Notes under the pieces: generated by a model
The model's input: the letters and a program-made list of their open reading frames with translations, nothing else
What the model was told of the DNA's origin: nothing
Databases searched by the model: none
Shown here: piece after piece, positions 9,579-46,286 of the stretch
Position numbering within the stretch: position 1 is the first letter of the stretch
Layout of the letters: every line of letters starts with the position of its first letter
Translations under genes and position numbers: made by a program
DNA from: an uncultured Planctomycetia bacterium
GTDB lineage: Bacteria > Omnitrophota > Gorgyraeia > 2-01-FULL-45-10
Direction of reading: 5' to 3'
Assembly: GCA_964450115.1 (NCBI GenBank)
Contig: CAYVCD010000001.1
Span: 8,410 to 72,409 of the forward strand
DNA: 64,000 bases

Positions 9579-9646
9579 CTGTAGTAGAACGCCAGGTATT
9601 TCAGTGAAAGATTTGACTTGGATGAGAGTGTATGCTATACTTATTA

Positions 9647-9670
9647 TACTTTAAGTAATTACTATAACTA
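9647..9670 (+). promoter_or_regulatory. conserved operator-like motif TACTTTAAGTAATTACTATAACTA (10-bp perfect palindrome AGTAATTACT) upstream of merR-like gene 1
   Basis: 21 of the 24 nt are identical to 11644–11667, upstream of the paralogous regulator. Confidence 0.45.
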
Positions 9671-9677
9671 CTACTAT

Positions 9678-9899
9678 ATGGCCAAGATCTCCGCACAGGA
9701 CGTCGTAAAGAAGTTCGGCATCAAGTACCATACCCTCAATTTCTATACCACCATAGGCTTACTGCCCCTTTCGGGAAAGAACGGCAACCAGAGAATGTTC
9801 GATGAGGACGAGATCAGGTCGAGGCTGGCCCGGATCACACGCCTTTCGCAGGAAGGCTACCCCTTGAACCTGATACGCAAGAAACTGGTGGGCGTATGA
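9678..9899 (+). CDS. short MerR-family HTH protein (BldC-like, no effector domain), paralogue 1
   Basis: 73 aa. MAKISAQDVVKKFGIKYHTLNFYTTIGLLP… matches the MerR N-terminal HTH. ATGA overlap with the downstream secretin gene. Confidence 0.6.
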   Translation: MAKISAQDVVKKFGIKYHTLNFYTTIGLLPLSGKNGNQRMFDEDEIRSRLARITRLSQEGYPLNLIRKKLVGV

Positions 9900-11632
9900 C
9901 ATTCAAACGCTCTTATCCTATTGTAGTCTTCGCTATTCTTACTATGGCGATGGCCTTAACCTGTGCAGAGGGCGAGGAGGCGACAGCTCAAAATCCGACA
10001 CAGCCTGTCCAGGAAGCGACTACCGCGGTAAGGGGTGAGAACGCCATGATATCCCTGGACTTGAAGGGGATAGACATAATAGAGCTCTTAAGGATACTAT
10101 CTCTCAAGACCGGCCTGACCATAGTCCCGACCAAAGGCGTTTCCGGCAGGGTCAACGTGTATCTCAATAATCTCACTTTCGAAGACGCCTTCAACATAAT
10201 ACTCTTAAGCCAGGACTTAGCCGCAGACAAGAAAAGCGGCGTCATAAACGTCATGACATCCGCCGAATATGAGAAGATATACGGCAGGAGGTATGCCGAC
10301 AAGAGGAAAGTCAAGATCCTGACGCTCGCTTACGCCAAGCCCTCCGTAGTATTCAATGCTCTGGGACAGCTGAAGTCCGATATAGGAAAGATCATAGTAG
10401 ATGAAGCGACCGGAACAGTATTTTTGATCGATATCCCAGAAAAACTGAAACTGATGGAAGATACCGTAAAAGACCTTGATCAGCCTCTCGATACCGCGGT
10501 ATTTGAGTTGAAATACGCTAAACCTGCGGACATAAAGGCCCATCTCTCTACGGCCATCACAGCCGGACTTGGGGAAGTATTTGTCGATGAGAAGGCCGGG
10601 AAGGTAGTAGTATCGGATCTTCCGTACAAGATAGATAAGATACGTAAGATGATAAAGTCCTTCGATTCGGCGCCTCTACAGGTATTTATAGAGGCTGAGA
10701 TATTGGAAGTCCTGCTTGATGATAAATTTGAAAGAGGCATAGACTGGGATGCGATGATATCCGGGAAGGCATGGCAGAAGTGGCTAAGGGTAGGCACCAT
10801 AGATCTAAAAGGCTTTTTCCCATCCACTCTGACTATCCCTTCTCAAAAGATTACGGTCGGCACTCTGAAGGAAACAAATTACACCTCCATTATAAGATTC
10901 CTCCAGACATACGGCGATACGAGGACTCTCTCCCGTCCGCGTCTTGCGGTAGTGGATAACCAGGAGGCCAAGATATTGGTAGGGACGAGGCAGGCTTATG
11001 TGAGCCAGACCCTGAGCCAAGGGGGGACGAGCACTACCGTAACATCGGAAAGCATCCAGTTCGTGGACGTAGGCGTTAAATTAAACGTAGCCCCATCCAT
11101 ATCGAGTGACGGATTCATAGTGATGAAGATAAGGCCCGAGGTGAGCGCGGTCGAGACCACGATCACGACATATCTCGGAAGCACCATACCTATAATAAAG
11201 ACCTCTGAAGCCGAAAGCGTCGTTAAGGTCAAGGACGGCACCATGATAATTATAGCGGGTATGATCAAAGAGGAGAACCCGGATGATATCACAGGCTGGC
11301 CATACCTGTCTAAGTTAAAAGGCGCGGGATTTTTATTTGGCAAGAGAACCGTTCAAAAAAGGCGTACCGAGCTCGTGATATTCATTACACCTCATATTAT
11401 TTCGGGCGAAGCGCCTGTGGATGATCACACGATCGAAGACCTGATGCCGGCAGAGATCGTACCGTGGGACGCGAAGAAAGACATAATAGACGATAAGATA
11501 AGGGAAGATATAAATTTTAAGAAAGAACCCAAGGCCAAAAACTATGCTCCAAAAGGTCAGGCGGCTAATTCAGGTCCGGAGAGCGGCCGAGGAGCTGTTA
11601 TGGGGAAGTCGAAAGGGGTTAAGAGTTATTGA
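9896..11632 (+). CDS. secretin (GspD/PilQ family), paralogue 1
   Basis: Signal peptide and N-terminal secretin N domains. Conserved secretin C-domain (…SRPRLAVVDNQEAKILVG…IQFVDVGVKLNVAPSISSDGFIVMKIRPEVS…GWPYLSKL…TELVIFITPHII). Confidence 0.85.
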   Translation: MTFKRSYPIVVFAILTMAMALTCAEGEEATAQNPTQPVQEATTAVRGENAMISLDLKGIDIIELLRILSLKTGLTIVPTKGVSGRVNVYLNNLTFEDAFNIILLSQDLAADKKSGVINVMTSAEYEKIYGRRYADKRKVKILTLAYAKPSVVFNALGQLKSDIGKIIVDEATGTVFLIDIPEKLKLMEDTVKDLDQPLDTAVFELKYAKPADIKAHLSTAITAGLGEVFVDEKAGKVVVSDLPYKIDKIRKMIKSFDSAPLQVFIEAEILEVLLDDKFERGIDWDAMISGKAWQKWLRVGTIDLKGFFPSTLTIPSQKITVGTLKETNYTSIIRFLQTYGDTRTLSRPRLAVVDNQEAKILVGTRQAYVSQTLSQGGTSTTVTSESIQFVDVGVKLNVAPSISSDGFIVMKIRPEVSAVETTITTYLGSTIPIIKTSEAESVVKVKDGTMIIIAGMIKEENPDDITGWPYLSKLKGAGFLFGKRTVQKRRTELVIFITPHIISGEAPVDDHTIEDLMPAEIVPWDAKKDIIDDKIREDINFKKEPKAKNYAPKGQAANSGPESGRGAVMGKSKGVKSY

Positions 11633-11643
11633 TATAATTGCTG

Positions 11644-11667
11644 TACTTTAAGTAATTACTTTAACTA
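11644..11667 (+). promoter_or_regulatory. conserved operator-like motif TACTTTAAGTAATTACTTTAACTA upstream of merR-like gene 2
   Basis: Paralogous to 9647–9670. Followed by a hairpin CCCCGCA…TGCGGGG overlapping the RBS region. Confidence 0.45.
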
Positions 11668-11717
11668 CATAACCCCGCACCTTCTTAATGGAGATGCGGG
11701 GAGGAGAAGGTGCGGTC

Positions 11718-11939
11718 TTGAAGAAGATCTCGGCTCAGGACATAGTGAAGAAGTTCGGCATCAAGTACCACACCCTTAACTATTACACTACGATGGGGCT
11801 ATTGCCCCTTTCGGGTAAGAGCGGCAATAGGCGTATGTATGACGAGAACGAGATACGGACGAGGCTTGACGATATCATGCGCCTTTCGCAGGAAGGTTAC
11901 CCTTTGAACCTTATACGCAAGAAGCTGGTGGGGATATGA
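11718..11939 (+). CDS. short MerR-family HTH protein (BldC-like), paralogue 2
   Basis: TTG start with an AGGAGAAGG RBS gives a 73-aa protein colinear with paralogue 1 (MKKISAQDIVKKFGIKYHTLNYYTTMGLLP…). The longer ATG 11688 start would add an unmatched extension. Confidence 0.55.
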   Translation: MKKISAQDIVKKFGIKYHTLNYYTTMGLLPLSGKSGNRRMYDENEIRTRLDDIMRLSQEGYPLNLIRKKLVGI

Positions 11940-12772
11940 GCTATTTTAAGATATTAGGATTGGACAGGGAGCCTTTTTCCACGAGCCCCGACCCCGCCTT
12001 CTTCTATGAATCGCAGGAGCACCACGCCGCTCTCATGAGGCTCATGATAGAGATACGTTTGAAGAGGGGCTTAAGCCTTATACTCGGAGACGTGGGGACT
12101 GGGAAGACGACGCTTTCGCGCAAACTCTTCCAGATGCTGAAGGAACGCACCGACATAATATTCCATATGGTGATGGACCCTACCTATGATAGCGAGAAGT
12201 TGCTGCTCGAATCTCTTATTCGTACATTCGGCATAGATATGGGCCCGGGGCCCGATCGTTCGATATTGGATTATAAGGAAGAGATAAAGAAGTATCTGTA
12301 CAGAACGGCGGTTGAGGAGAATAAGATAGTGGTCCTCCTGGTGGACGAGGCGCAGAAGCTGAATGCGATGTCGCTGGAGATCTTAAGGGTAATGCTCAAT
12401 TATGAAACCAATGAATTTAAGCTCCTGCAGGTGGTCTTGCTGGGCCAGCTTGAGCTTTTACCGCGCCTAAGAGAGATAAATAATCTATGGGACAGAATAA
12501 GCTTGAAGTACATGTTGAACCCGCTGGATGAAGAAGAGACTAGACAGATGATAGATTTCAGATTAAAGGCGGCGGGCTATAATTCACGTGTGGAATTTTT
12601 CACCGATGAGGCGATAAAAGAGATATATCAATACACCCAGGGGTATCCGAGGCGCATATCTATGCTATGCCATAACGCGCTTAAGGCTCTAGTTATGGTG
12701 AATAAGCCTATAGTGGATGTGAATATAATCCGCGACATAATGAGTAAGGATATATGGCAAAAGACGACATGA
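11936..12772 (+). CDS. ExeA/GspA-like AAA ATPase (secretin-assembly ATPase)
   Basis: N-terminal LGLDREPF motif typical of ExeA. Walker A GDVGTGKT. Walker B VLLVDEAQ. ATGA overlap with the merR-like gene. Confidence 0.7.
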   Translation: MSYFKILGLDREPFSTSPDPAFFYESQEHHAALMRLMIEIRLKRGLSLILGDVGTGKTTLSRKLFQMLKERTDIIFHMVMDPTYDSEKLLLESLIRTFGIDMGPGPDRSILDYKEEIKKYLYRTAVEENKIVVLLVDEAQKLNAMSLEILRVMLNYETNEFKLLQVVLLGQLELLPRLREINNLWDRISLKYMLNPLDEEETRQMIDFRLKAAGYNSRVEFFTDEAIKEIYQYTQGYPRRISMLCHNALKALVMVNKPIVDVNIIRDIMSKDIWQKTT

Positions 12773-13380
12773 CGCCTGAAGAGAGGCTTTTGAAGATAAT
12801 CGAGAATCCGAACACCCCGAAGCGCCAGGAGTCTTTGGCCGCCAAAGTGAGATCGTTCGATCCCGGATCTATAAAGGAATGGTTCTCCGGCATTCGCATG
12901 GATAAGGACCTTCTTAAAAAGATAAACCTAAAGGCGATCAATAAGATAATAGCCGTAATATGCGCCCTCATTACCTTAATATGGATATTCGATTTTGGCA
13001 GGGGTGGCATAGCGCTGGCAAAGCGTTTTAAGAAGATCTCCTCCGGCGAATCTCTCGTTTCGTCGGATGAAGGTAAGTGGCCTAAAATAGACGTTACTAT
13101 AACAGATGCCACAATACAGGCAAGAAAACGGAATATATTTACATTTCTGCCTACAAAAGAAGAGGCAGCTTCTGCGGTAAGCGTGGGGCCGACATTGGGC
13201 AATTTTAAACTTGTCGGTATACTGTGGAGCGATAACCCGCAGGCGATGATAGAAAATTCGCAAGAGCAGAGAACATACTTCGTTTCAAACGGAGATAAGA
13301 TAGGCGAGCTGACTGTAAAAAAGATCCTAAGGGACAAGGTAATGCTTGGTAAAGATGATCAGGAGTGGGAGTTAAGATGA
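12754..13380 (+). CDS. single-pass membrane protein with C-terminal GspB/GspC/PilP-like HR domain
   Basis: One TM (IIAVICALITLIWIF). The C-terminus (FKLVGILWSDNPQAMIENSQEQRTYFVSNGDKIGELTVKKILRDKVML) matches the secretin-interacting HR/PilP pattern. Overlaps both neighbouring genes. Confidence 0.45.
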   Translation: MAKDDMTPEERLLKIIENPNTPKRQESLAAKVRSFDPGSIKEWFSGIRMDKDLLKKINLKAINKIIAVICALITLIWIFDFGRGGIALAKRFKKISSGESLVSSDEGKWPKIDVTITDATIQARKRNIFTFLPTKEEAASAVSVGPTLGNFKLVGILWSDNPQAMIENSQEQRTYFVSNGDKIGELTVKKILRDKVMLGKDDQEWELR

Positions 13381-15104
13381 GGCGAATATTATCGATATTG
13401 ATAATCGTCGTTTTCGTCTCCTCGTTCGTATATTGCGAGGAACCTACGCAAGAGTCCGAGTTGAAGGTTAGCGAAAAAGACTCCATGATATCCCTCGACC
13501 TAAAGGGTATAGATATAGTAGAACTCCTAAGAATACTCTCTCTCAAGACCGGCCTTACCATAGTCCCCACAAAGGGCGTATCTGGCAGGGTCAACATATA
13601 TCTCAACAATCTCTCATTTGAGGACGCCTTTAATATCATTCTCCTGAGCCAGGACCTTGCCGCGGACAGGAAGGGCAGTGTGATAAATGTCATGACATCC
13701 CCAGAATACGAAAAACTATACGGCAGGAAATATACCGACAAAAGAAGGGTCAGGCGCTTAAAGTTAAATTATGCTAAACCCTCTGTAGTATTCAACGCGC
13801 TCGGCCAGCTGAAATCCGATGTCGGCAAGATAATCGTGGATGAGGCGTCCGGGACGATAATACTTATCGATATCCCGGAGAAATTAAAGCTGCTGGAAGA
13901 AGCCGTGAAGAAGCTCGACCAGCCTCTCGATACGGAAACTTTCGAACTAAAATACGCCAAGCCCGCGGATATTAAGGCTCAGCTTTCATCGGCTATTACC
14001 CCGGGGCTCGGCGAGGTCTTTGTAGATGAAAAAACGGGCAAGGTCATAGTCTCGGATATGCCCGACAAGATAGCTAAGATCAGGCGCATGGTGAGAGCTT
14101 TCGACTCCGCGCCTTTACAGGTATTTATAGAGGCCGAGATAGTGGAGCTATTGCTTAATGATGAATTCCAACGCGGTATAGATTGGACCAAGGTCTTTGG
14201 AGAAGAGCAATGGATGAAGTGGTCCAAGCTTTTAGGCCTTTCTTTGGTAGGGGCATTTCCCGCGGTTCCTACTCTTGCGGCAGCTTTCCAGAAAGTCACT
14301 GTTGGAACGCTCGCTGCCAACAAATATACAGCCACATTAAAATTCCTCCAGACATACGGTAAGACGAGGACCCTCTCCCGTCCGCGTCTGGCGGTAGTGG
14401 ATAACCAGGAGGCTAAGATATTGGTAGGTAAGCGCGAAGCCTATGTGAGCCAGACTTTGAGCCAGGCGGGAACGGGTACCACCGTGACATCAGAGAGCAT
14501 ACAGTTCGTGGATGTCGGAGTGAAGCTTAATGTGGTGCCGTCCATCTCAAGCGACGGCTTCATAGTGATGAAGATAAAGCCCGAAGTCAGCTCGGTCGAG
14601 ACCACGATTGTTACATCCCTGGGGAGCCGTATACCTATAATCAAGACTTCGGAAGCCGAAAGTGTCGTTAAGGTCAAAGATGGCACTATGATAATGATAG
14701 CGGGCCTGATGAAAGAGGAGAATATCGACAGCATAACAGGCTGGCCATACTTGTCCAAAATGAAAGTGCTTGACGCTGCATTTGGGAACAGGACGACTAC
14801 AAAAAAGAATACAGAACTTATAATATTTATTACTCCTCGTATCATAACGGGCGAAGCGCCCGTAGAGGATAATGAGCTCGAAACGCTGATGCCGGCAAGC
14901 ATCATACCGAAGGATCTCAAGGAAGATATAATAGACGATAAGATAAAGAAAGATATAAATCTGAAGAAAAGAGAGAAAATGGGGACAGCGCCCCTTTTAG
15001 ACAAAAGCTATTTGAGTGCTAAAAAGGGCGCTGTCCCCATTTCTGAAAAGTCCGGCGTTAGCTTCGCCGACAAGATGAAAGGAATTAAAAAATATGAAAA
15101 ATAA
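13377..15104 (+). CDS. secretin (GspD/PilQ family), paralogue 2
   Basis: About 70% identical in translation to 9896–11632. ATG 13377 with an AGGAGT RBS gives a signal peptide MRRILSILIIVVFVSS. Confidence 0.85.
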   Translation: MRRILSILIIVVFVSSFVYCEEPTQESELKVSEKDSMISLDLKGIDIVELLRILSLKTGLTIVPTKGVSGRVNIYLNNLSFEDAFNIILLSQDLAADRKGSVINVMTSPEYEKLYGRKYTDKRRVRRLKLNYAKPSVVFNALGQLKSDVGKIIVDEASGTIILIDIPEKLKLLEEAVKKLDQPLDTETFELKYAKPADIKAQLSSAITPGLGEVFVDEKTGKVIVSDMPDKIAKIRRMVRAFDSAPLQVFIEAEIVELLLNDEFQRGIDWTKVFGEEQWMKWSKLLGLSLVGAFPAVPTLAAAFQKVTVGTLAANKYTATLKFLQTYGKTRTLSRPRLAVVDNQEAKILVGKREAYVSQTLSQAGTGTTVTSESIQFVDVGVKLNVVPSISSDGFIVMKIKPEVSSVETTIVTSLGSRIPIIKTSEAESVVKVKDGTMIMIAGLMKEENIDSITGWPYLSKMKVLDAAFGNRTTTKKNTELIIFITPRIITGEAPVEDNELETLMPASIIPKDLKEDIIDDKIKKDINLKKREKMGTAPLLDKSYLSAKKGAVPISEKSGVSFADKMKGIKKYEK

Positions 15105-15465
15105 TATGCTTATGGTATCGATCTTAGTCGTCTCTCTGTCGTTTGCGGGATGCGCAAGGGTGCTGCCGAAGCGGATAAGCGTACAGGAGTCGGCCGCGGA
15201 AAAGGGCGCGCTCTATGAAGAGCTGGGGACCGCTTATACGAAGGCCGGCCTCTATGATGAGGCTATAGAAGCCTATAAGAATTCCCTTGTATGTGATCCT
15301 AATAACGCGGATATACATTATTATCTGGGCCTGCTTTACCAGAAGTCGAATAAAGATGTGGAGAAGGCGGTATTCCATTTTAAGAGGTACCTGTACCTGA
15401 AGCCGGACGCCAAGAACAGAGAAGATGTAAGGTACCTGATCGAGATGGTGCTGAATAAAAGATAG
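15094..15465 (+). CDS. TPR-repeat lipoprotein (PilF/PilW/pilotin-like candidate)
   Basis: Lipobox LSFAGC. Two or three TPR motifs (AYTKAGLYDEAIEAYKNSL…IHYYLGLLYQK). Sits directly after a secretin gene. Confidence 0.55.
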   Translation: MKNNMLMVSILVVSLSFAGCARVLPKRISVQESAAEKGALYEELGTAYTKAGLYDEAIEAYKNSLVCDPNNADIHYYLGLLYQKSNKDVEKAVFHFKRYLYLKPDAKNREDVRYLIEMVLNKR

Positions 15466-15476
15466 AGGAGCCAAGA

Positions 15477-16061
15477 ATGGGCAAGAATAAACAGTCGGCG
15501 ATCAATTTACCTATCATCCTTTCAATAGTTTTGGCTGTGATCCTGTCGGTATCTTTATGGCAGAATCACAGGGCAAGGATATACGAGGCTATCCTCGAAA
15601 AGAACATATTCTTGCTGAATGAAAATCTTATGCAATATCAGAGGTCGGATAAAGAGATGGTCTTTGGCGCGGACAACGAAGCGGCATCATACCTTAAGTG
15701 GAAGTTCGTTCTTAAAGAACAGGTGGATCAGACCACCCAGATATTCAGCGACAAAGCGGCTGCGTTAAAGAATGCCGGCAAAGATAAGGTCCTCGCTTCG
15801 CTTTTATACTACAACGCTGGATTGGCCCAGACTGTCAATTCAGACTTCTCATCCGCAATAGCGGCTTTTGAAGAAGCAGTAAGACTCGATCCTAAAAATG
15901 GTTACGGCTATTACAATCTAGGCATGCTCTACTGGGCATACGGTAAGAATAAAGCCAAAGCGCTCCATTGTTATAAAAAATATATGGAGATATTTCCGAG
16001 AGGTATTTATTCTGGCGTAGTCAAGGCCAGGATCGATCAACTAGAGGAGCTTAAACGATGA
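15477..16061 (+). CDS. membrane-anchored TPR-repeat protein
   Basis: N-terminal TM (LPIILSIVLAVILSVSLW). C-terminal TPR (…YYNAGLAQ…AFEEAVRLDPKNGYGYYNLGMLYWAYG…). Confidence 0.5.
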   Translation: MGKNKQSAINLPIILSIVLAVILSVSLWQNHRARIYEAILEKNIFLLNENLMQYQRSDKEMVFGADNEAASYLKWKFVLKEQVDQTTQIFSDKAAALKNAGKDKVLASLLYYNAGLAQTVNSDFSSAIAAFEEAVRLDPKNGYGYYNLGMLYWAYGKNKAKALHCYKKYMEIFPRGIYSGVVKARIDQLEELKR

Positions 16062-16768
16062 AGAATAAAGCATATGTAATAGCCATAGCCGCGCTGGCGG
16101 CGATCTTAGCGCTGGCATCCATCTTTTTCATACTGCACGCGAATAAATTAAAGAGTCAGATCAGCCAGAATAAGAATGCTATCCGGAACATAGAATCTGA
16201 ACTCTCCCGCGCGCGTGAAGAGAAGGAGAACATAACAAAGGCCAATGAGAAGCTCCAGGCCGATAGCGTATCCTATCTTGCTATAAATTCTAAGCTTGGT
16301 GATGAAAAGGAAGAGCTTAAGACCAGGCTTGATAAAGTCCAGAAGACTATAGATACGAAAGAAGCAAACCTTCAGAGGGTTCAGCAGAGGTTGGATGAGA
16401 TAGAAAAAGCTGCGGCCGCAAATAAGAAGGCCGAGGATGAAAAGCTGGCAAAAGATAAGAAGGTGCTGGAAAAGAAAGTTTTAAAGACCGCCTCGGCTAT
16501 AAAGAAAGAGAGGGGCGTTTATCATTACAATCTTGGCGTAGCGTACGCGCAGGCAAAGTTCTACGGCGAAGCGATCGAAGAATATGAAAAATCTATCAAG
16601 TTTGCCCCCGAAAACGCCGATACCTATTATAACCTCGGCGTATTATATGAAACCGTAGAGGCTGATACCGAAAAGGCTATAGCTAATTACAGGAGATACC
16701 TTGAGCTTAATCCAGCGCCAGAAGATATTGATGAGATCCGAGAGCGGATAAAGAGATTGGGCGGCTAG
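16058..16768 (+). CDS. membrane-anchored coiled-coil / TPR protein
   Basis: N-terminal TM, long coiled-coil, C-terminal TPR (YHYNLGVAYAQAKFYGEAIEEYEKSIKFAPENADTYYNLGVLYE). Confidence 0.5.
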   Translation: MKNKAYVIAIAALAAILALASIFFILHANKLKSQISQNKNAIRNIESELSRAREEKENITKANEKLQADSVSYLAINSKLGDEKEELKTRLDKVQKTIDTKEANLQRVQQRLDEIEKAAAANKKAEDEKLAKDKKVLEKKVLKTASAIKKERGVYHYNLGVAYAQAKFYGEAIEEYEKSIKFAPENADTYYNLGVLYETVEADTEKAIANYRRYLELNPAPEDIDEIRERIKRLGG

Positions 16769-16777
16769 AGACTCTAA

Positions 16778-17065
16778 ATGCGAAATAATCTTTCGGTAGT
16801 GATCATCACCATTATAATTCTGCTGATGTCGGCCGGCATATATCTTTCTATAGATAGTTATGGTTTAAAGAGACGCATTGCGGAAAAGGAGAGAGAGTTC
16901 ATCGCCAGAATATCCGAGGAGCGCGATATATTAAAGAAGAGCTTGCAGGAGAGATACGGTGCGAGTATGGCATCTTACGAAGAGATGTATAAAATGATGG
17001 AAGCCCAGAAGAAAAAAGTTCGCGAAATAGAAGATAAGCTCCGAAAGACCGACGGCAATAGTTAG
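16778..17065 (+). CDS. small membrane-anchored coiled-coil protein
   Basis: N-terminal TM plus a coiled-coil. Shares a C-terminal motif (RYGASMASYEEMYKMMEAQKKKVREIEDKLRK) with the C-terminus of the 17374 protein. Confidence 0.4.
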   Translation: MRNNLSVVIITIIILLMSAGIYLSIDSYGLKRRIAEKEREFIARISEERDILKKSLQERYGASMASYEEMYKMMEAQKKKVREIEDKLRKTDGNS

Positions 17066-17092
17066 TCGATAAAAAAGTAAGATGCCGGCCTA

Positions 17093-17120
17093 TTGACTAT
17101 TTTTAAAGGCGTGATATACT
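17093..17120 (+). promoter_or_regulatory. putative sigma70 promoter (TTGACT –16– TATACT)
   Basis: Hexamers at 17093–17098 and 17115–17120. Would start a transcript near 17128. Confidence 0.4.
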
Positions 17121-17127
17121 TATAGTA

Positions 17128-17314: not shown

Positions 17315-17373
17315 CGGAATTTTTAAAAGTGCCACGCTGAATTATAGTTTTTGGTAAAAAAAGGAGAAATAAA

Positions 17374-18372: not shown

Positions 18373-18382
18373 ACGAAAGAAG

Positions 18383-31949: not shown

Positions 31950-31960
31950 TGAGACGATCT

Positions 31961-32043: not shown

Positions 32044-32056
32044 CGATCTTTTTTTT

Positions 32057-33091: not shown

Positions 33092-33093
33092 GA

Positions 33094-35530: not shown

Positions 35531-35547
<17 letters not shown>
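34054..35547 (+). CDS. atpA: F-type ATPase alpha subunit
   Basis: P-loop GDRQTGKTSIAIDAIL. …AYRQISLLMERPPGREAYPGDIFYVHSQLMERA…. Confidence 0.9.
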
Positions 35548-39443
<3,896 letters not shown>

Positions 39444-39500
39444 CAGAACTGAAAGATTAGTAGGGCAGGTTTAAACCTGCCCTACCGATGTGAATAACTT

Positions 39501-40727
39501 ATGCCAAACTATTACTATAAAGCGAAGCACGGCCTCGAAGAGACCCTTGAAGGTTCGATAGAGGCGGCAAATCAGGACGAGGCTCTGCAGAAACTGATAG
39601 CGAAAGGGCTCTTTCCGATCACTATAAAAGAGTCCTCTCTGAGCGCGAAGAAAGCAGCAAAAAAATTCCGTATGAAGATAGGCCCGGACAAGATAAAGTC
39701 AGGCGAGCTATTAACATTCATAAGGAAACTCGCCACTCTTACCAGGGCTAAGGTGGAGCTGCTATCGAGCCTCAAGATACTTTACGAACAGACTGAGAAC
39801 GAACGCTTTAAGGCGATCGTATTGGATCTTTACAATGCTACGAAGGAAGGGAAGCCTTTTTCGGAGAGCCTGGCCCGCTATCCCGACGTCTTCTCGTTCA
39901 TACTGGTGAATATAGTGAGGGCTGGAGAGGCGAGCGGACATCTCGATGCGAGCCTCGACCAGATAGCCGAGTTCATGCAGCGCGAGGAGGGCCTGAAGAA
40001 CAAGATCCTGGTAGCGCTGGCGTATCCCGGCCTTCTACTTATGGTGGGGGTCGTGAGCATATTCGTATTGATAAATTTCGTCATTCCAAAGCTTAAGCCT
40101 ATATTCGATTCACTCGGAGCTAAAGAGCTGCCGCTCATAACTAAAATAATATTGAATATAAGCGTCATTTCGCAAAAGAGCTGGTGGATATTTGCTATAG
40201 CGTTCGCAATTTTGGCGGTGATCATATATCAGCAGAAGGGTCTGCCGTATTTTAAAACAATGGCCGGAAAATTAAAGTCAAGCCTGCCCATAGTAAAGAA
40301 CCTTTCCGTGAACCAGGAACTGGCACATTTCTCGAGGAGCCTTGCGCTCCTTTTGACTAGCGGTGTGCCGGCATTGAGGAGCCTGGAGATCGTGACGCCC
40401 AGCATAGAGAATAAGGCTCTTAAGGAAGGGCTTAAGAAGGTCTGCCAGCAGGTTGCCGCTGGAAAGACCATCTCGAAGAGTATGGAAGAGTCGACGGGAC
40501 TGCCCACCTTCTTCACAAAGATGGTCGCCGTCGGTGAGGAGTCCGGCAGACTGTCCGAGGTCCTGACGGAACTGTCGAGGTCTTATACTCAGCAGATAGA
40601 ATCCGATATAGTTTTAGTCTCCTCGCTTATAGAGCCCGTTCTGATACTTACTCTAGGACTCGTGCTGGGCACGATTGTTCTATCGATACTTCTGCCAACA
40701 TTCCAGGTAACACAGATGGTGCGTTGA
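39501..40727 (+). CDS. gspF: type II secretion system platform protein GspF/PilC family
   Basis: 408 aa, two T2SSF repeats, three TM segments. Confidence 0.85.
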   Translation: MPNYYYKAKHGLEETLEGSIEAANQDEALQKLIAKGLFPITIKESSLSAKKAAKKFRMKIGPDKIKSGELLTFIRKLATLTRAKVELLSSLKILYEQTENERFKAIVLDLYNATKEGKPFSESLARYPDVFSFILVNIVRAGEASGHLDASLDQIAEFMQREEGLKNKILVALAYPGLLLMVGVVSIFVLINFVIPKLKPIFDSLGAKELPLITKIILNISVISQKSWWIFAIAFAILAVIIYQQKGLPYFKTMAGKLKSSLPIVKNLSVNQELAHFSRSLALLLTSGVPALRSLEIVTPSIENKALKEGLKKVCQQVAAGKTISKSMEESTGLPTFFTKMVAVGEESGRLSEVLTELSRSYTQQIESDIVLVSSLIEPVLILTLGLVLGTIVLSILLPTFQVTQMVR

Positions 40728-42160
40728 TCATGGCCTCCCCTGTAGGACTGGAGATCGGCGACAGGTACCTGAAGATGGCGGCATCGAAGCCATCGAAAGA
40801 ATCTCCGGGATCATTTCAACTCTTAGCCAAACCGATCCAGGGTCTTAAGGACGAGGATATATCGAAAGCAATAAAGGAGATCATCGAGAAGGCTGCCATT
40901 AAGACGGGCACAATAGTGATCTCGCTTCCCAGAAACCTCGTTACTATGCGCAATCTGCATCTGCCAAGCCGCGATCCGGAAGAGATATCCCAGATGATAG
41001 ACCTGCATATCAGCAGGATCGTCCCCTATAAAAAGGATGAGATAGCGTTCGACCATCTCTCTTTGCGTACGGACTCTCTCGGATATACGGCCGAAGTTCT
41101 CGCTATAGTGCATAAGGACGTCCTAAAGCGCTATCAGAGAATAGTGGAGAACGCAGGCCTTGATATCGACGGCATATTCTTGAGCACTTACGGCATATGG
41201 CAATGGACGGTCGATAAGTTCAAGAGCGAGATAAACAACCAGGACCTCTATCTTCTTCTCGATATCGATTCCACATACACGGACTTCATCATATTTAATA
41301 AAGATAATATACTCTTCAGTCGCACCCTGGCATTCGAATTAAAAGATGTTGTACCCAACTCTGAGACTAACAAACTGATGGGTGAAATAAAGCAGTCGCT
41401 CCTCATATTCCATAAGAATGAATCAATAAATAAGAAACCGTCGGCTATCTTTGTTTCGGGCTCATATGACGATAATATTATGAACGCCATCAAGAGGGAG
41501 TTCACCATTCCGGTGAATATGGTACCCGATCCGGCTACGCAGGCCTCCAGGATCAAAGATACGGTCCTTCCTAAAGATACCTCGATGACTGCGGTCACGG
41601 AGTTCATCGCTGATGATAAAGGTCAGAGGCTTTCATTCGCCTTGCCGGAGATGCTGATAAGAAGATCACTGAAGGAGAAGACGAGAGAACTCACAATACT
41701 CGGGACGACATTGATATATCTCTTTGCCGCGATAATGGCGTTCTTCTGGGGCAGGCAGTATAATCAGCAGTCCTATCTCAAGCGTATCGTGAACCGCAAT
41801 ACTCTGATAGAGCGCGACGTCGGGAGCCTGCTCGGCCAATATAAAAGGATGGCTTTTGTAAAAGATTTTCTATATAAGAGATCAGTGCCCATGCTCTTAA
41901 TGAATGAGCTCGGAAAGATGACGCCGCCCGAAATAGTACTGAACTATATATCTATAGAGAATAATGAAGCCGTGATCATAAGGGGACAGGGCCTTAAGTT
42001 ATCGGATGTATTTAAGTTCGTAACAACATTAGAGAATTCGAAATATTTCCAGGACGTATCAACCAAATCCACGCGCACAAAGAAAGTCAAGGAGAGGGAT
42101 ATCACGGATTTTGAGATAAATTTCGCGATCTCGCTGGGGAAAAATGATAAAAATAAATAA
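40724..42160 (+). CDS. GspL-like assembly protein (PilM-type actin-like cytoplasmic domain + TM + PilN-like periplasmic domain)
   Basis: PilM-like N-terminal ~330 aa, TM LTILGTTLIYLFAAIMAFFWG, periplasmic C-terminal domain. ATGA overlap with gspF. Confidence 0.6.
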   Translation: MIMASPVGLEIGDRYLKMAASKPSKESPGSFQLLAKPIQGLKDEDISKAIKEIIEKAAIKTGTIVISLPRNLVTMRNLHLPSRDPEEISQMIDLHISRIVPYKKDEIAFDHLSLRTDSLGYTAEVLAIVHKDVLKRYQRIVENAGLDIDGIFLSTYGIWQWTVDKFKSEINNQDLYLLLDIDSTYTDFIIFNKDNILFSRTLAFELKDVVPNSETNKLMGEIKQSLLIFHKNESINKKPSAIFVSGSYDDNIMNAIKREFTIPVNMVPDPATQASRIKDTVLPKDTSMTAVTEFIADDKGQRLSFALPEMLIRRSLKEKTRELTILGTTLIYLFAAIMAFFWGRQYNQQSYLKRIVNRNTLIERDVGSLLGQYKRMAFVKDFLYKRSVPMLLMNELGKMTPPEIVLNYISIENNEAVIIRGQGLKLSDVFKFVTTLENSKYFQDVSTKSTRTKKVKERDITDFEINFAISLGKNDKNK

Positions 42161-42683
42161 GAGAGAGAAGATCCTGGCGTATGCCATCGGCGGGCTGATA
42201 GCCATATTTTTGATAGAGCATTTTCTCTTCTCCGGCATACGCGGAAAATCGAAGGGCGTATCGCAACAGATAAGGATAGAGGAGTCACGCCTGCAGGCCG
42301 GTCTCGATATTCAGAAGCGCAAAGATAAGATAACCGCAGAGTATAAGGAGCTGAAGCCATACCTGGAAAAATCGGAAGGTATCTCCGACAGGGAGATATT
42401 CGCAAAGTTCCTTAAGGAAGCGGAGAGGGTGGCTCAGGAGGCGGGGGTCTCCATAGTGAGCTTAAGTCCCCAGAATGAGACGCTTGATGAGCCTGAAGAC
42501 GTAAAATATAATGCCGATCTGCGCGCTGAGGGTAGCCTCGCCCAGGTGCTTGGCCTTATGGATAAGATACAGAAGAGCACCCTTCTCATAAAGCTTGATA
42601 AGATGAGCTTGTCTTCCAAGGACGAGCAGGCAGGAACAATGAAGATAGAGGCCGTATTAAGCCTTGTCGTACCCAAACCTTAA
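42144..42683 (+). CDS. GspM/PilO-like bitopic inner-membrane protein
   Basis: N-terminal TM (ILAYAIGGLIAIFLIEHFLF) and a periplasmic coiled-coil / ferredoxin-like domain. Sits in the gspL–gspM position. Confidence 0.45.
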   Translation: MIKINKREKILAYAIGGLIAIFLIEHFLFSGIRGKSKGVSQQIRIEESRLQAGLDIQKRKDKITAEYKELKPYLEKSEGISDREIFAKFLKEAERVAQEAGVSIVSLSPQNETLDEPEDVKYNADLRAEGSLAQVLGLMDKIQKSTLLIKLDKMSLSSKDEQAGTMKIEAVLSLVVPKP

Positions 42684-42690
42684 GACCGAT

Positions 42691-43092
42691 TTGTATAAAA
42701 GATCCGCGTTTTCCATGATCGAGCTGATGGTGGCAGTTTCCGTGCTATCGATAGGAGTTATTTTGATAGCTCGATCATTCCTTTCCGCCTCAGGTGCCTT
42801 ATCAAGCTGTGAAAGCAGGATAGTGGCATTAAACTTTCTTGAAAGTAAGATGGCCGAAGTCGAAGAGAAGGCGCTGAACGGCGACGATGATCTAGCCGGC
42901 CCCGGCGAATCGGTGTCGATAAACGGAAGGAAGGCCGATTTTAGTTCCAGCTCACAGGAGATTAAGATAGGCAAAGACGAGGATAAGCTGTTTATCAATG
43001 AGGTAATGCTGAAAGTAAGCTGGCGTGAAGCCAATAGGCCTTATGACGAAGAACTGGGGACGTATGTTGAGATCGGGAAGAATGAAAAGTAA
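42691..43092 (+). CDS. minor pseudopilin (prepilin-type N-terminal methylation domain), GspI/H-like
   Basis: TTG start gives leader MYKRSA|FSMIELMVAVSVLSIG with F+1 and E+5. ATG within FSMIEL would remove the leader. Confidence 0.55.
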   Translation: MYKRSAFSMIELMVAVSVLSIGVILIARSFLSASGALSSCESRIVALNFLESKMAEVEEKALNGDDDLAGPGESVSINGRKADFSSSSQEIKIGKDEDKLFINEVMLKVSWREANRPYDEELGTYVEIGKNEK

Positions 43093-43645
43093 ACGCTCTA
43101 AAAAGGCCTTCACGCTGGTGGAAGTGATCCTCGCCATAACTATATTTTCATTCATAGCCGTCGGCATATCCACTAGCTTCTTCTCCGGGATAAAACTTTG
43201 GGGCCGCGCCATAAGCACAGATTCCTGGCGTAATGACATATTGCTCGGCTTTGAATCGATAGCCGCTGCTTTAAGACAGACGGTCGACATACCTGATATA
43301 GGATATTCCGGGGACGAAAAATCCATATCGTTTCTTACCATCTCCGGAAATAATATTATAAGGGAATCGTACTCTTTTGACGCACAGAAGAAAGCCCTCA
43401 CAAAAAGCAAGACTAAATTGAAGGATATATCGGAGAACGACAAAGGCGGACAAGCGGCCGGCATACCCTTTCTCTCTTTAGATGAATTTTCGATACGGTA
43501 CCTTTACAGGGACCATTTGAAAAATACCTCCCAGTGGAGGGACGAATGGAAGAAGGAAGACGGCATATTTGCCGCCGTACAGTTTACAGCCAAAACACAC
43601 AATGAAGAATTCAACAAGACGGTATTCATACCTATCGCCGAATAG
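43082..43645 (+). CDS. minor pseudopilin (prepilin-type N-terminus), GspJ-like
   Basis: Leader MKSKRSKKA|FTLVEVILAITIFSF with F+1 and E+5. Confidence 0.6.
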   Translation: MKSKRSKKAFTLVEVILAITIFSFIAVGISTSFFSGIKLWGRAISTDSWRNDILLGFESIAAALRQTVDIPDIGYSGDEKSISFLTISGNNIIRESYSFDAQKKALTKSKTKLKDISENDKGGQAAGIPFLSLDEFSIRYLYRDHLKNTSQWRDEWKKEDGIFAAVQFTAKTHNEEFNKTVFIPIAE

Positions 43646-44459
43646 AGGGAGCATCCTCATAGTCACTATGTGGGTGCTGATATGTTTCTCTATTCTTAGC
43701 ATCGGATTATACAGGGTCGTCTCTTCGCGCATAAAGGTCACCCAGGTGATGACTAACAGGATCACAGGGCAGTACCTGGCCAAGGCGGCGTGCGCCTATT
43801 TTAAGGCGATAAAAAAAAGTGACGCGACGCCATCTGACACATTGGCCGAACTTAACACGGCCCAGGAGCGGGAAATGGGCAACGGAAAATTTAAATATAT
43901 CCTTAGGGACGAGAAGAGCAAAATAAATATGAATAGAGCATCCATAGAGATGATCTCCCGCCTCCCGGACTTCAGCAAAGATACGGCAACTGATATAGTT
44001 GTATCAAAGTTAAAACCGTTTAAGGCCATAGAGCAGCTGTTGCTTATTGACGGCGTGAATGAGGCTATGCTCGATAAATGCAGGGGCCTCATAACCGTAT
44101 ATGGCGACGGGAGCGTAAATATCAATACAGCATCTGCTGAGGCTTTTAAAGTGCTCGGGCTTGATGAAGGCCTTGTGGATATCATAATCGCCTTTCGAAG
44201 AGGATCCGATGGCAAAGAAGGCACTGCCGATGACGTGGCTTTTGATAATAAGTCCGGGATCATAGAGTACCTGCGCTCCAAGACCTCTTTATATGAGGAG
44301 CAGGAGGCGAAATTGCTTCAGTTGACGAGCCAGGATATGCTTTCCACGAGCTCGGACACTTTTACGCTGGATATAGAAACAACAGTTCTCGAAAAGCCCG
44401 CGATGCGGTATAATATTGTAATGGAGAAGGATAAGATCAAGCGCTGGACCGAGATATAG
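43602..44459 (+). CDS. GspK-like minor pseudopilin
   Basis: Hydrophobic N-terminus RGSILIVTMWVLICFSILSIGL and …VNINTASAEAFKVLGLDEGL… as in GspK. The start is uncertain; 43569 is the alternative. Confidence 0.55.
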   Translation: MKNSTRRYSYLSPNRGSILIVTMWVLICFSILSIGLYRVVSSRIKVTQVMTNRITGQYLAKAACAYFKAIKKSDATPSDTLAELNTAQEREMGNGKFKYILRDEKSKINMNRASIEMISRLPDFSKDTATDIVVSKLKPFKAIEQLLLIDGVNEAMLDKCRGLITVYGDGSVNINTASAEAFKVLGLDEGLVDIIIAFRRGSDGKEGTADDVAFDNKSGIIEYLRSKTSLYEEQEAKLLQLTSQDMLSTSSDTFTLDIETTVLEKPAMRYNIVMEKDKIKRWTEI

Positions 44460-44483
44460 AAAAAAAGAGAAAGGGCTAATGCC

Positions 44484-44906
44484 ATGATCAAAAGAATAAT
44501 TCACAGAAAAGGTTTCACTCTCATAGAGCTGATGCTTGTGGTTATCATCATAGGCATACTCGTCGCCATGATAGTGCCCAGGATGGCTGGCAGGTCTGAG
44601 CAGGCGCGCGTAGCCGTCTCCCAGGCCGACGTAGACCTGAATATAGCCACGGCGCTTAAACTTTATGAGCTCGACAACGGATCATTTCCCACGACCGATG
44701 AGGGGCTAAACGCATTATTGTCTGCTCCATCTACGGCAAAGCGCTGGAAAGGCCCGTATCTCGATAAGGCTCCGGTAGATCCATGGAGTAACCCGTATAA
44801 ATACAGATCGCCCGGCACTCACCGTACTGATTATGATCTCTACTCTCTCGGCAAGGACGGCACCGAAAGCTCCGATGACGTCACCAACTGGCAACAACAG
44901 CAGTAA
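44484..44906 (+). CDS. gspG: type II secretion major pseudopilin GspG
   Basis: HRKG|FTLIELMLVVIIIGILVAMIVP. LKLYELDNGSFPTTDEGLNALL. KGPYLDKAPVDPWSNPYKYRSPG…DLYSLGKDG. Near-colinear with PulG/GspG. Confidence 0.85.
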   Translation: MIKRIIHRKGFTLIELMLVVIIIGILVAMIVPRMAGRSEQARVAVSQADVDLNIATALKLYELDNGSFPTTDEGLNALLSAPSTAKRWKGPYLDKAPVDPWSNPYKYRSPGTHRTDYDLYSLGKDGTESSDDVTNWQQQQ

Positions 44907-44927
44907 TAAATAGGAGATCATATATCC

Positions 44928-46286
44928 ATGCATGACACAAAAGTAAATCTATCCGAAAAAGATATTCCGCAGAGCTGGTATAATGTCGCGGCGGATCTGC
45001 CATTTGAGCTGCCGCCGCCCATAAATCCTGGGACCGGAAAGCCCCTGGCAAAGGACGACCTGCGCGCCATATTTCCTTTGGCCCTGATAGAGCAGGAGAT
45101 GAGCCGTAAGCGATGGATAGATATACCGAACGAAGTAAGGGACATATTGAAGATATGGCGGCCGACGCCACTAAAGAGGGCGCTACGTCTGGAGAAAGCG
45201 TTAAAGACCAAGTCGAGAATATACTATAAAGACGAGTCCGTTTCTCCGACGGGAAGCCACAAGACTAACACCGCCATAGCCCAAGCCTACTATAATAAGA
45301 AAGAGGGCATAAAACGGATCACCACCGAGACCGGAGCCGGGCAGTGGGGATGCGCATTAAGCTATGCATGCAATGTATTCAATTTAGGATGCCGAGTCTA
45401 TATGGTCAAGGTGAGCTTTCACCAGAAGCCTTTAAGAAAATCACTTATGCATATATGGGGCTCAGAAGTCATAGCGTCACCTTCCGAATTTACAGAAAGC
45501 GGCAGGCAGATGTTGAAGCAGGATCCGCATTGCCAGGGCTCACTCGGCATGGCGATATCGGAGGCTGTCGAAGAGGCCGCGAAGAACAAAGAGGCCAATT
45601 ACGCTTTGGGCAGCGTGCTCAACCATGTTCTCCTGCACCAGACAGTTATAGGGCTGGAGACGAAGAAGCAGCTGAAGATAATGGGCGAGAAGAGGCCCGA
45701 TTATCTGATCGCCTGCGTTGGCGGAGGAAGTAATTTCGGGGGCTTCGCGTTCCCGTTCGTTAAAGACAGGATAAAGGATAGCAGGATAAAGATAGTGGCG
45801 GTCGAGCCATCCGCATGCCCAAGCCTAACGAAGGGCGTATATGCCTACGATCACGGTGATACCGCTTCGCTTACGCCTCTATTAAAGATGTTTACGCTTG
45901 GCCACACATTCATGCCGCCCGGTATCCATGCCGGCGGTCTACGTTATCACGGCTGTTCTCCGCTTGTAAGCGCCATAGCGGCGAAGGGCTTGATCGAATC
46001 TAAATCCTACCATCAGCTCGAGGTATTTAAAGCCGCTGTGCTATTCGCGAAGACAGAAGGCATGGTGCCGGCACCTGAGACCGCGCATGCCATTAAATGC
46101 GCTATCGATATGGCCACAAAGGACAAGAAGGAGAAGTGCGTCGTCTTCAATTTTAGCGGTCACGGCTTTCTCGATCTATCGGCATATGACAGGTTCTATA
46201 GCGGAGAGCTCAAGAACTATGCCTATCCAGCTCACCAGATAAAGAAGGCCTTAAAGAGCCTTCCCAAAGTCTTCTCACCTAAGTAA
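44928..46286 (+). CDS. TrpB2-type tryptophan synthase beta-like PLP enzyme (stand-alone)
   Basis: 452 aa with the TrpB2 N-terminal extension. PLP lysine context …[17 protein letters not shown]… GGGSNFGG loop. No trpA nearby. Confidence 0.7.

Follow-up and report, generated by a model that had tools for sequence, protein, structure and literature searches.

Why would a bacterium carry the genes of a rotary F-type ATPase in the middle of those for a secretion-type filament machine and a giant surface protein? This question is raised by positions 9618-46286 of a 64,000-nucleotide stretch of contig CAYVCD010000001.1 (assembly GCA_964450115.1, positions 8,410 to 72,409), which was analysed over its whole length and is called the window here. 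Its gene content was taken from a listing of open reading frames (ORFs) and from Pfam and NCBIfam scans of the window proteins. A first-pass annotation, made from the letters of the sequence, had described the span as a supercluster of genes similar to those of type II secretion systems (T2SS) and type IV pili, with two secretins, an adhesin-like giant protein and an embedded F-type ATPase. Essentially every element that it named is present; missing from its list were merR1, merR2, a Y1_Tnp-like gene and the genes of two proteins which we call x16778 and x31155. We judge the chances somewhat better than even that the span is an instance of the Omnitrophota 'symbiotic F-type ATPase / type-4 filament' locus, with a proposed machine for presenting the giant protein and an accessory ATPase. 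The annotation had also supposed that such an arrangement has not been described as a unit. This no longer stands, as Seymour et al. (2023) and West-Roberts et al. (2023) report its core. Since the pairing of ATPase and pilus genes was already reported in 2023, the window offers another, more detailed example of it rather than a system of a new kind.

The block from the giant gene to the major pseudopilin gene, on which the argument turns, is composed as follows.

18383-31135, + strand: exported surface protein of 4250 amino acids (aa; 460 kDa, 12.75-kb ORF), the giant protein (Pfam, sequence inspection)
31155-31949, + strand: x31155, 264 aa, with signal peptide, beta-sandwich, three-helix bundle, transmembrane (TM) anchor and charged tail (AlphaFold2 model, pLDDT 81)
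31949-32851, + strand: exported MA-clan HExxH metallopeptidase (Peptidase_MA_2, E 8.5e-16)
32852-33091, + strand: F1 epsilon, N-terminal beta-sandwich only, 79 aa (TIGR01216, 51 bits against a cutoff of 67, profile positions 2-81 of 130)
33094-33306, + strand: Fo c subunit with the conserved carboxylate (TIGR01260, 26 bits, under cutoff)
33329-34054, + strand: b subunit fused to the C-terminal part of delta/OSCP (ATP-synt_B at residues 6-134)
34054-35547, + strand: F1 alpha (atpA equivalogs passed, 571 and 542 bits against cutoffs of 554 and 484)
35531-36385, + strand: F1 gamma, divergent (PF00231, E 4.8e-37; TIGR01146, 86 bits against a cutoff of 194)
36382-37776, + strand: F1 beta (atpD passed, 568 bits against a cutoff of 463)
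37773-39443, + strand: GspE/PilB/MshE-type assembly ATPase with an N-terminal MshEN motif that binds cyclic di-GMP (c-di-GMP) (T2SSE, E 1.5e-129)
39501-40727, + strand: GspF/PilC platform protein (T2SSF, two copies)
40724-42160, + strand: PilM-PilN fusion of GspL-like architecture (PilM_2 and PilN)
42144-42683, + strand: x42144, single-TM protein of 179 aa in the GspM/PilO position (no family match)
42664-43092, + strand: GspI-like minor pseudopilin (N_methyl motif; GspI 23.8 bits, under cutoff)
43025-43645, + strand: second prepilin-type minor pilin (N_methyl motif)
43569-44459, + strand: GspK-like HHH protein (GspK 46.6 bits, under cutoff)
44484-44906, + strand: GspG major pseudopilin (TIGR01710, 147.6 bits against an equivalog cutoff of 88.85; prepilin motif G|FTLIE)

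Is this order peculiar to one genome? The first-pass annotation had set conservation of the gene order as its own test beforehand, and synteny was found in dozens of related genomes. A scan with the GspE protein, in which one genome per species was retained, gave 80 loci with GspE 54-76% identical to that of the window, and all window proteins were mapped onto them; because of this range of identity the loci are not redundant assemblies of one population. Most are titled as Omnitrophota metagenome-assembled genomes (MAGs) and some are mislabelled 'Planctomycetales'; judged by these nearest loci, the contig is Omnitrophota. The annotation's suggestion of a small-celled, putatively host-dependent bacterium agrees with this assignment and with what is reported of Omnitrophota (PMC10066038). 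The gene for beta, atpD, lies directly 5' of gspE in 50 of the 64 loci which have more than 1.6 kb of upstream flank, and there are 6 further partial cases. The gap between the two genes is mostly 5-100 nt, and in the window the stop of beta overlaps the start of gspE by 4 nt. One locus (L001) independently shows the atpG-atpD-gspE junction. The block which recurs comprises the C-terminus of the giant, x31155, the MA peptidase, epsilon, c, b/delta, alpha, gamma and beta, followed by gspE, gspF, the gspL-like gene, x42144, the pilins and gspG. In a neighbour-joining tree of GspE, the loci without atp genes, L010 excepted, group in a clade of their own; their order is gspE-F-G...exeA-secretin, and this looks like a paralogous system. 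The ATP-linked GspEs fall into several clades, with four arrangement types that track the tree. Type A is the window-like arrangement, and in type B the module of exeA, secretin and tetratricopeptide repeat (TPR) genes lies downstream of the pilins. Type C (14 loci, with intact and tightly packed ORFs) has epsilon between gspE and gspF, and type D (4 loci: L033, L037, L040 and L042) has the MA peptidase gene between gspF and gspG. Such interleaving of epsilon and peptidase genes with gsp genes makes chance adjacency of the modules hard to maintain.

The giant protein has a single hydrophobic segment, at its N-terminus, which was taken for a signal peptide on visual inspection, no predictor being used. 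Matches to Kelch_4/Kelch_6, DUF2341 and Reelin-B are at or above cutoff, and Ig-like repeats of the Kre9_KNH type are present. Residues of about 100-1500 resemble aromatic- and Gly-rich Kelch-like propeller blades with internal repeats; these are followed by a DUF2341/LamG-like region, the Kre9_KNH Ig-like repeats (about 2220-3700) and a coiled-coil-prone C-terminus, which ends NKPVTQTWFEYK. The AlphaFold2 model of the last 551 aa averaged a pLDDT of 50 and was not used for a fold search; taken for secondary structure only, it shows beta-sandwiches alternating with long helices. The N-terminal 800 aa had no database match at E<=1e-8 and the C-terminal 801 aa had six matches only, so that homologues of the giant were located through synteny. 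Conservation in types A, C and D extends over the C-terminal 700-1200 aa, which end NKPVTQTW[FY]E[YF]K, and the C-terminus is co-linear across relatives. A variable distal and a conserved proximal end is the pattern that would be expected of an adhesin. The homologue in Ca. Makaraimicrobium thalassicum, an ORF of 4116 or 4131 aa in two independent assemblies, has the same domain mix and aligns with residues 919-1742 and 2256-4249 of the window giant; next to it come x31155, epsilon, c, b/delta, alpha, gamma, beta and MshEN-GspE, in this order.

How could such a protein be held on the cell? The x31155 family has 221 members with no Pfam domain, and its named sources are Omnitrophota/PVC only. 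In 10 loci, L038 and nine loci of type C (L046, L047, L053, L055, L057, L058, L060, L065 and L070), the giant is fused in frame to x31155. From this Rosetta-stone fusion in relatives we infer that x31155 anchors the giant in the membrane. The constant neighbour of x31155 is the MA peptidase, which has the motif HEMAH and a downstream Glu. In one homologous region (L082; JGI 3300027921, Ga0260547_10000219, 1994-5237) a diversity-generating retroelement cassette, consisting of a 475-aa target with the FGE-sulfatase fold, bAvd and the reverse transcriptase RVT_1, lies directly 5' of split large surface-protein genes (1536 and 530 aa). The same region additionally holds a Y1_Tnp gene and a REC-GGDEF gene. 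The cassette hints at a programmed diversification of binding proteins beside the apparatus.

The filament machine is best called, from its domain matches, a T2SS-like member of the type-4-filament superfamily with features of the mannose-sensitive haemagglutinin (MSHA) pilus. Its GspE, the sole T2SSE/PilT-family match among the window ORFs scanned, scores about equally with PilB (591 bits, cutoff 675) and GspE (577 bits, cutoff 630), under cutoff in both cases, and GspF reaches 325 of the 424 bits of its equivalog. The protein x42144 is conserved in relatives, and its possible GspM/PilO role is taken from its position only. ComEA was considered for the HHH_3 protein; the profile match fits a GspK-type minor pseudopilin better. 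The MshEN motif is well supported (PF05157, E 3.1e-17; NF053729, 62.5 bits against a cutoff of 38). A REC-GGDEF cyclase of about 290 aa is encoded directly 5' of the atp genes (epsilon or c) in at least 25 related loci, among them L043, L046, L021, L022, L024, L035, L082 and L083. The pairing of this gene with the MshEN motif suggests that the machine may be gated by c-di-GMP.

Is the F-type enzyme functional, and is it complete? Beta carries the P-loop GGAGLGKS and the motif GVGERIREG. Most relatives retain the P-loop of beta, the G[AVI]GER.REG motif and the Arg finger of alpha; the catalytic Glu among the alpha3beta3 motifs is conserved in the window and in most relatives. The c-ring carboxylate (Glu, in an FAE motif) was present in every c-subunit match recovered from relatives, and the b subunit retains its TM anchor. 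The enzyme looks active because the catalytic motifs and the c-ring carboxylate are conserved. Other parts are reduced, and gamma and c have diverged. In the b/delta fusion, positions 86-167 of the OSCP profile match residues 149-231 and the N-domain of delta is absent. Alpha (497 aa) lacks the N-terminal 13-20 residues, its residues 8-14 aligning to 21-30 of most solved alphas; it is these N-terminal residues of alpha that normally bind the delta N-domain. The first-pass annotation had spoken of an F1Fo-like operon, which holds for epsilon, c, b/delta, alpha, gamma and beta and fails for the a subunit (atpB). No polytopic a-like ORF was found in the cluster or in the 64-kb window, and none within 10 kb of gspE in the 80 related loci. 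Neither atpB nor a prepilin peptidase gene was found in the approximately 7 kb beyond the 3' end of the window which are covered by an independent 64.7-kb assembly (L132), where only GH57, ExbBD and TrkA genes are present.

Further observations bear on the status of this enzyme. In one complete genome (L083, CP070797.1, positions 13882-14660) the cluster stops at residue 259 of the 497 of alpha; the order there is x31155, peptidase, REC-GGDEF, epsilon, c, b/delta, broken alpha and then a gene for a TPR/methyltransferase protein of 2118 aa. In each of two MAGs there are two ATP-gspE loci, which differ in arrangement type (L037 and L038 in JADHWH01, L023 and L039 in CAYOMI01). In the supplement of Seymour et al. 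(2023, PMC10066038), the KEGG Orthology (KO) list of genome 221 includes K02111 and K02112 but not K02108, and the lists of genomes 58 and 221 include the V-type membrane subunits K02123 and K02124 (I, K) but not K02117 and K02118 (V1 A/B). One might speculate that a V-type I-like stator could serve an F-type enzyme that has no a subunit. According to a 2026 preprint (10.64898/2026.06.07.730766), alpha and beta occur in 125 of 176 complete Omnitrophota genomes and a recognisable gamma in 30 of 176. The broken cluster of CP070797.1, the two-locus MAGs, the KO list of genome 221 and the scarcity of gamma argue that the enzyme may be an accessory one.

Upstream of the giant gene lie a module for the outer membrane and then the Y1_Tnp-like gene.

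9618-9899, + strand: merR1, small helix-turn-helix protein of the MerR_1 type (PF13411, E 2.6e-10)
9896-11632, + strand: secretin 1 (Secretin and Secretin_N domains)
11688-11939, + strand: merR2, small helix-turn-helix protein of the MerR_1 type (Pfam), a conserved partner of exeA
11936-12772, + strand: ExeA/GspA/MshM-like AAA ATPase (AAA_22, E 3.4e-19)
12754-13380, + strand: single-TM GspB/GspC-like partner of ExeA (weak T2SSC/GspC match, E 0.004 and 0.0009)
13365-15104, + strand: secretin 2 (Secretin domains), a conserved orthologue
15094-16768, + strand: three TPR proteins in the MshN/pilotin position (TPR Pfam matches)
16778-17065, + strand: x16778, TM and coiled-coil protein, paralogous to the tail of the Y1_Tnp-like protein
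17374-18372, + strand: protein with a Y1_Tnp (HUH)-like domain, TM segment and coiled coil (PF01797, E 1.2e-14)

This upstream half was followed by a metagenome scan with secretin 2. The order merR, exeA, gspB-like gene, secretin, TPR genes, Y1_Tnp-like gene and giant gene was found in L089, L096, L108, L123 and L130, with variants in L090 and L095; the giant ORFs in these metagenome loci are still open at the contig end, at a length of at least 2080-2510 aa. Both L010 and at least 15 metagenome loci keep the merR-exeA pair, the ExeA-like ATPase (TIGR03015, 185 bits, under cutoff) is 60-76% identical to the copies of relatives, and the position of the GspB/C-like gene between exeA and the secretin gene is conserved in relatives. 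Why are there two secretins? They are 71% identical, and the best match of the relatives' secretins is always secretin 2; secretin 1 is a recent duplicate, and the merR copy was carried along with it. The true start of merR1 is probably an internal ATG near 9678. Related loci often have tandem duplications of the secretin, the two hits lying about 1.5 kb from each other (L100, L102, L104-L107, L109, L117 and L126), and the variant seen in the window is a merR-secretin copy upstream of merR-exeA-gspB-secretin. Both secretins score about equally with the models for GspD (209-214 bits, cutoff 351), PilQ (197-208 bits, cutoff 284) and MshL (TIGR02519, 177-181 bits, cutoff 250), under cutoff throughout.

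TPR genes are found 3' of the secretin gene also in L010, L089, L095, L108, L123 and L130. The first-pass annotation had called the TPR proteins pilotin-like lipoproteins. Three TPR proteins are indeed in this position and TPR1, with a lipobox-like FAGC found by eye, is a possible lipoprotein; TPR2 and TPR3 are anchored by TM segments. The Y1_Tnp-like protein has a C-terminal TM helix followed by a conserved coiled coil (ERYRADMVS..AM.KRLEIEK), and x16778 is similar to this tail (BLASTP, 35% identity, E 2e-11). Homologues of the Y1_Tnp-like protein lie directly 5' of the giant gene in L089, L096, L108, L123 and L130 and, with variations, in L095 and L090. The HUH motif is retained in most of these relatives and lost in L130 (PNQINLL). 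That the gene is a stray IS200 element was ruled out by its conserved position and the TM/coiled-coil extension. Shorter Y1_Tnp genes occur at other positions within related clusters; the loci compared for this gene included L037, L082 and L078.

How far does the unit extend, and how might it be transcribed? The first-pass annotation had stressed the shared strand of the genes and drawn the unit to 46286. The genes are co-directional, but this does not distinguish the span: every ORF treated as a gene is on the + strand across the whole 64 kb, so that co-directionality is a property of the contig, and both GC and AT skew are positive throughout. As a unit the span holds through gspG, but not for the last gene. 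Two further features belong here.

17286-17315, + strand: terminator-like hairpin (17286-17305) and T-run, the best + strand terminator-like site in 8400-19000
44928-46286, + strand: PALP-fold (pyridoxal phosphate) enzyme, last gene of the span

None of the relatives mapped has the PALP-fold enzyme conserved along with the cluster, to which it is unrelated. Promoter and terminator sites were obtained from consensus scans. The hairpin sits in a gap of 309 nt, the only sizeable one of the span. A promoter-like site lies in this gap too (17093-17120), and sites of this sort with an extended -10 precede merR1, merR2 and the Y1_Tnp gene, that at 9613-9641 overlapping the TTG start of merR1. The hairpin is likely the end of the transcript of the outer-membrane module, and the span likely consists of two transcription units, this module (9.6-17.1 kb) and an operon of about 29 kb (17.4-46.3 kb). 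No tRNA gene was found by a tRNA scan of the window and no family at the gathering threshold by an Rfam scan; there is thus no Rfam match to a c-di-GMP riboswitch in the window. The region 3' of the PALP gene starts with a perfect sigma-70 consensus (TTGACA-16-TATAAT, 46363-46390), followed by the genes of two large proteins (46432-50799, 1455 aa; 51046-53889, 947 aa). Both proteins have hydrophobic segments at the N-terminus and internally and lack a significant match in Pfam, and their genes do not adjoin gspG in relatives. An oxidative-stress/redox island at 53927-61655 encodes an Rrf2 regulator, a 4Fe-4S protein, a hybrid-cluster protein (prismane), a flavin reductase, a flavodiiron protein, a ferritin/rubrerythrin, a thioredoxin-reductase-like protein and an Ogg glycosylase. 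Genes for NifU, rubredoxin, desulfoferrodoxin and glutaredoxin were additionally called in this island in L132.

With which known systems does the span agree? Seymour et al. (PMC10066038) reported that on 57 of 66 contigs 'symbiotic' F-type ATPase clusters and type IVa pilus (T4aP) clusters lie within 10 kb of each other. Every Omnitrophota class was found to have such loci, V. archaeovorus LiM among their carriers; Ca. Makaraimicrobium is named in that paper too. The alphas of these loci fall in a clade apart from the 'respiratory' Omnitrophota alphas, with multiple losses and transfers. The window resembles these loci in host and in co-location, F-type alpha and beta adjoining genes for type-4-filament assembly. 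Seymour et al. called the filament machine T4aP, using TXSScan, and drew a functional analogy to the F1-like ATPases of Mycoplasma. Type IVa pilus membership was rejected for the window: PilB and PilQ are under cutoff, PilM and PilN are fused, the pilin is of the GspG type and PilT is absent among the window ORFs scanned. Their 'type 2/3' label for the ATPase is likewise not supported by the hidden Markov model scores of the window alpha and beta. The Mycoplasma enzymes, associated with MIB-MIP or with gliding (G1 of M. mobile), share with the window F1-derived alpha and beta, an incomplete Fo and adjoining surface or motility machinery, whereas the window cluster retains c, b/delta, gamma and epsilon. 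Membership in Mycoplasma types 2/3 was rejected, as the models glide_MMOB1660/1670 and MSC_0619/0618 gave 430, 322, 438 and 394 bits against cutoffs of 600, 520, 850 and 570. Against solved structures, beta scored 407-487 bits with canonical F1 betas and 359 bits with the beta of the M. mobile G1-ATPase, and alpha 367-473 bits with canonical F1 alphas. The N-ATPases were rejected too: the alt_F1F0 models for alpha, beta, gamma and b gave 526, 492, 50 and 42 bits against cutoffs of 750, 752, 282 and 225, and the order epsilon-c-b/delta-alpha-gamma-beta without atpQ, atpR or atpB differs from atpDCQRBEFAG. Compared with canonical F1Fo (KEGG M00157), the window has the catalytic alpha3beta3 motifs, the c carboxylate and the central stalk gamma, and it is without an a subunit in the areas searched, a full-length delta and a two-domain epsilon.

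The machine resembles a T2SS in its GspG equivalog, GspI- and GspK-like minor pseudopilins, GspL-like PilM-N fusion, GspE, GspF, secretin and ExeA(GspA)/GspB-like pair, and MSHA in the MshE-type c-di-GMP motif, the MshM-like ATPase and the MshN-like TPR proteins. It differs from both in that its filament components except GspG are under the equivalog cutoffs, and from the T2SS in that there is no clear GspC and that the window yielded neither GspH nor GspO. Moreover, it is interrupted by the adhesin module and the F-type ATPase, and we know of no classical T2SS or MSHA operon which contains either. Tethered giant adhesins of the LapA/LapG/LapD type combine a dedicated export route, the type I secretion system, with a protease and c-di-GMP-controlled release. 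The span likewise encodes a repeat-rich giant adhesin together with an export machine, a protease and c-di-GMP signalling, retention being suggested by the x31155 fusion. The export machine here is, in contrast, T2SS-like, the protease is of the MA clan and the probable tether is in the inner membrane; in the absence of sequence homology, the likeness is one of analogy only. Large surface-protein genes amid gspD/E/F-type and pilin-like genes, for which roles in prey adhesion have been proposed, are known from Omnitrophota: conserved T2SS-like loci lie next to giant genes (West-Roberts 2023, 10.1101/2023.11.21.568195), and in the 2026 preprint (10.64898/2026.06.07.730766) T2SS-like or pilus genes flank them too. 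The giants of West-Roberts et al. exceed 30,000 aa (ORFs above 20 kb being an alternative limit of the class) and have many TM helices and usually divergent SecA-DEAD domains, unlike the 4250-aa product of the 12.75-kb ORF in the window, with one N-terminal hydrophobic segment and no SecA or DEAD match; their loci contain rcpC and rotamase genes, and an ATPase is not mentioned. A text search of Seymour et al. 2023 found no mention of a missing a subunit, of the reduced epsilon, delta and alpha N-terminus, of epsilon or peptidase genes interleaved with gsp genes, of the giant-x31155-peptidase triad, the giant::x31155 fusion or the REC-GGDEF/MshEN pairing, or of a Y1_Tnp-like neighbour. Text searches of West-Roberts et al. 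2023 and the 2026 preprint likewise did not find the missing a subunit and the reduced stalk subunits, the interleaving, the Kelch/Ig adhesin of about 4000 aa with its x31155 anchor and peptidase, the fusion, the GGDEF/MshEN pairing or the Y1_Tnp-like neighbour.

How might the parts work together? In the reading we prefer, the giant protein would be exported by Sec and stay tethered to the cytoplasmic membrane via x31155. The pseudopilus machine, gated by c-di-GMP through MshEN, would push or present the elongated adhesin through the secretin, leading to attachment to a host or prey cell, and the MA peptidase may process or release the adhesin. The F-type enzyme would be an accessory, ATP-hydrolysing rotary ATPase dedicated to this apparatus and not a housekeeping ATP synthase. 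Several of our observations weigh against this. Alpha and beta pass the housekeeping atpA and atpD cutoffs and are nearer to canonical F1 than the Mycoplasma F1-like ATPases are, and a c carboxylate in every match recovered is normally a sign that ions are translocated against an a subunit, whose gene may lie elsewhere. The two loci per MAG could mean mixed bins instead of paralogous systems. No prepilin peptidase or PilT was found among the window ORFs scanned, the window and most of its closest relatives are without the REC-GGDEF gene, and the split into two transcription units rests on consensus scans only. The close relative L010 (GspE 70% identity) has the secretin and TPR genes directly followed by gspE, with no giant or ATPase. 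Finally, the first-pass annotation had the two membrane halves of the machine bracket the giant gene and the ATPase. The ATPase-gspE junction is a conserved core, but the secretin module changes its place by clade: upstream, downstream in type B and on the opposite strand in L038. Could the modules then be adjacent by chance in a compact, single-strand genome? Tight packing and overlap of genes are normal in a window that is co-directional throughout, and L010 shows that the T2SS-like cluster can be contiguous without giant gene or ATPase. We nevertheless consider chance adjacency very improbable, given the ATPase-gspE junction in 50 of 64 loci at 54-76% GspE identity, the separate conservation of the giant-x31155-peptidase and secretin-TPR-Y1_Tnp-giant blocks, and the linkage of modules by gene fusion and intercalation. 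An artefact of assembly or annotation, in which the 12.75-kb ORF or the juxtaposition would be chimeric, is an idea that repeat-rich giant genes, prone to misassembly, invite. We give it hardly any credence: besides the uninterrupted ORFs in the two M. thalassicum assemblies and the junction confirmed by L001, an independent Logan assembly of the window's own population (L086) is 100% identical over residues 2048-4250 of the giant and continues into x31155 and the peptidase.

More questions are raised by the enzyme itself. Could the atp genes encode the only F-type H+-ATPase of the cell, with atpB elsewhere, hydrolysing ATP to generate the proton motive force (pmf) in fermentative or acetogenic cells? 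Their co-transcription with the T2SS-like machine would then reflect the need of secretion or pilus function for pmf, or operon inertia. The alpha and beta scores and the intact catalytic motifs agree with this, as do the TM anchor of b and the c-ring Glu in every match recovered; the conserved carboxylate in particular would favour this explanation. With gamma recognisable in 30 and alpha/beta present in 125 of 176 genomes, a divergent enzyme may be the only F-type ATPase in many of them. Fusions of b with delta and short epsilons occur in working rotary ATPases, and secretion by T2SS has been reported to depend on pmf. A housekeeping ATPase is harder to reconcile with the lack of an a subunit in or near any of the 80 clusters, the truncated cluster in a complete genome, the two clusters in each of two MAGs, and the epsilon and peptidase genes interleaved with gsp genes. 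The alpha clade of Seymour et al., separate from the respiratory one and marked by losses and transfers, and the KO list of genome 221 without K02108 point the same way, though divergence could hide K02108 (PMC10066038). A dedicated enzyme would be favoured by the lack of an a gene, the break in the cluster, the possible duplications and the interleaved genes, and we regard a housekeeping role as doubtful, if worth keeping in mind. What could a dedicated enzyme do? It could be a motor, or it could generate pmf locally. An assembly of F1, gamma, epsilon, c-ring and b/delta without an a subunit might act as an ATP-driven mechanical rotor that drives extension, rotation or retraction of the pseudopilus and its tethered 460-kDa adhesin. 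It might dock to the T2SS-like platform (GspF, the GspL-like fusion and the protein in the GspM position) or to the cytoplasmic tail of x31155. We put this forward as a bold suggestion that is unlikely to be right.

Omnitrophota are widespread, ultra-small and uncultured, and they are thought to be predators or parasites (PMC10066038 for small-celled and host-dependent). The locus is the best candidate for their attachment organelle. To the published ATPase/pilus observation the window and its relatives add that no a gene lies in or near the cluster, that the delta N-domain and the alpha N-terminal residues which bind it were lost jointly, that epsilon and peptidase genes are interleaved with gsp genes, that the giant and its anchor are fused in frame, and that a GGDEF cyclase is paired with an MshEN ATPase. 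These details sharpen that observation into testable hypotheses. If the F-type enzyme were indeed a rotor, a rotary F-ATPase would, besides Mycoplasma gliding, have been recruited independently for a second time as the motor of a surface organelle. It would also be the first rotary F-ATPase coupled to a type-4-filament machine, and a new way to power a bacterial surface machine.

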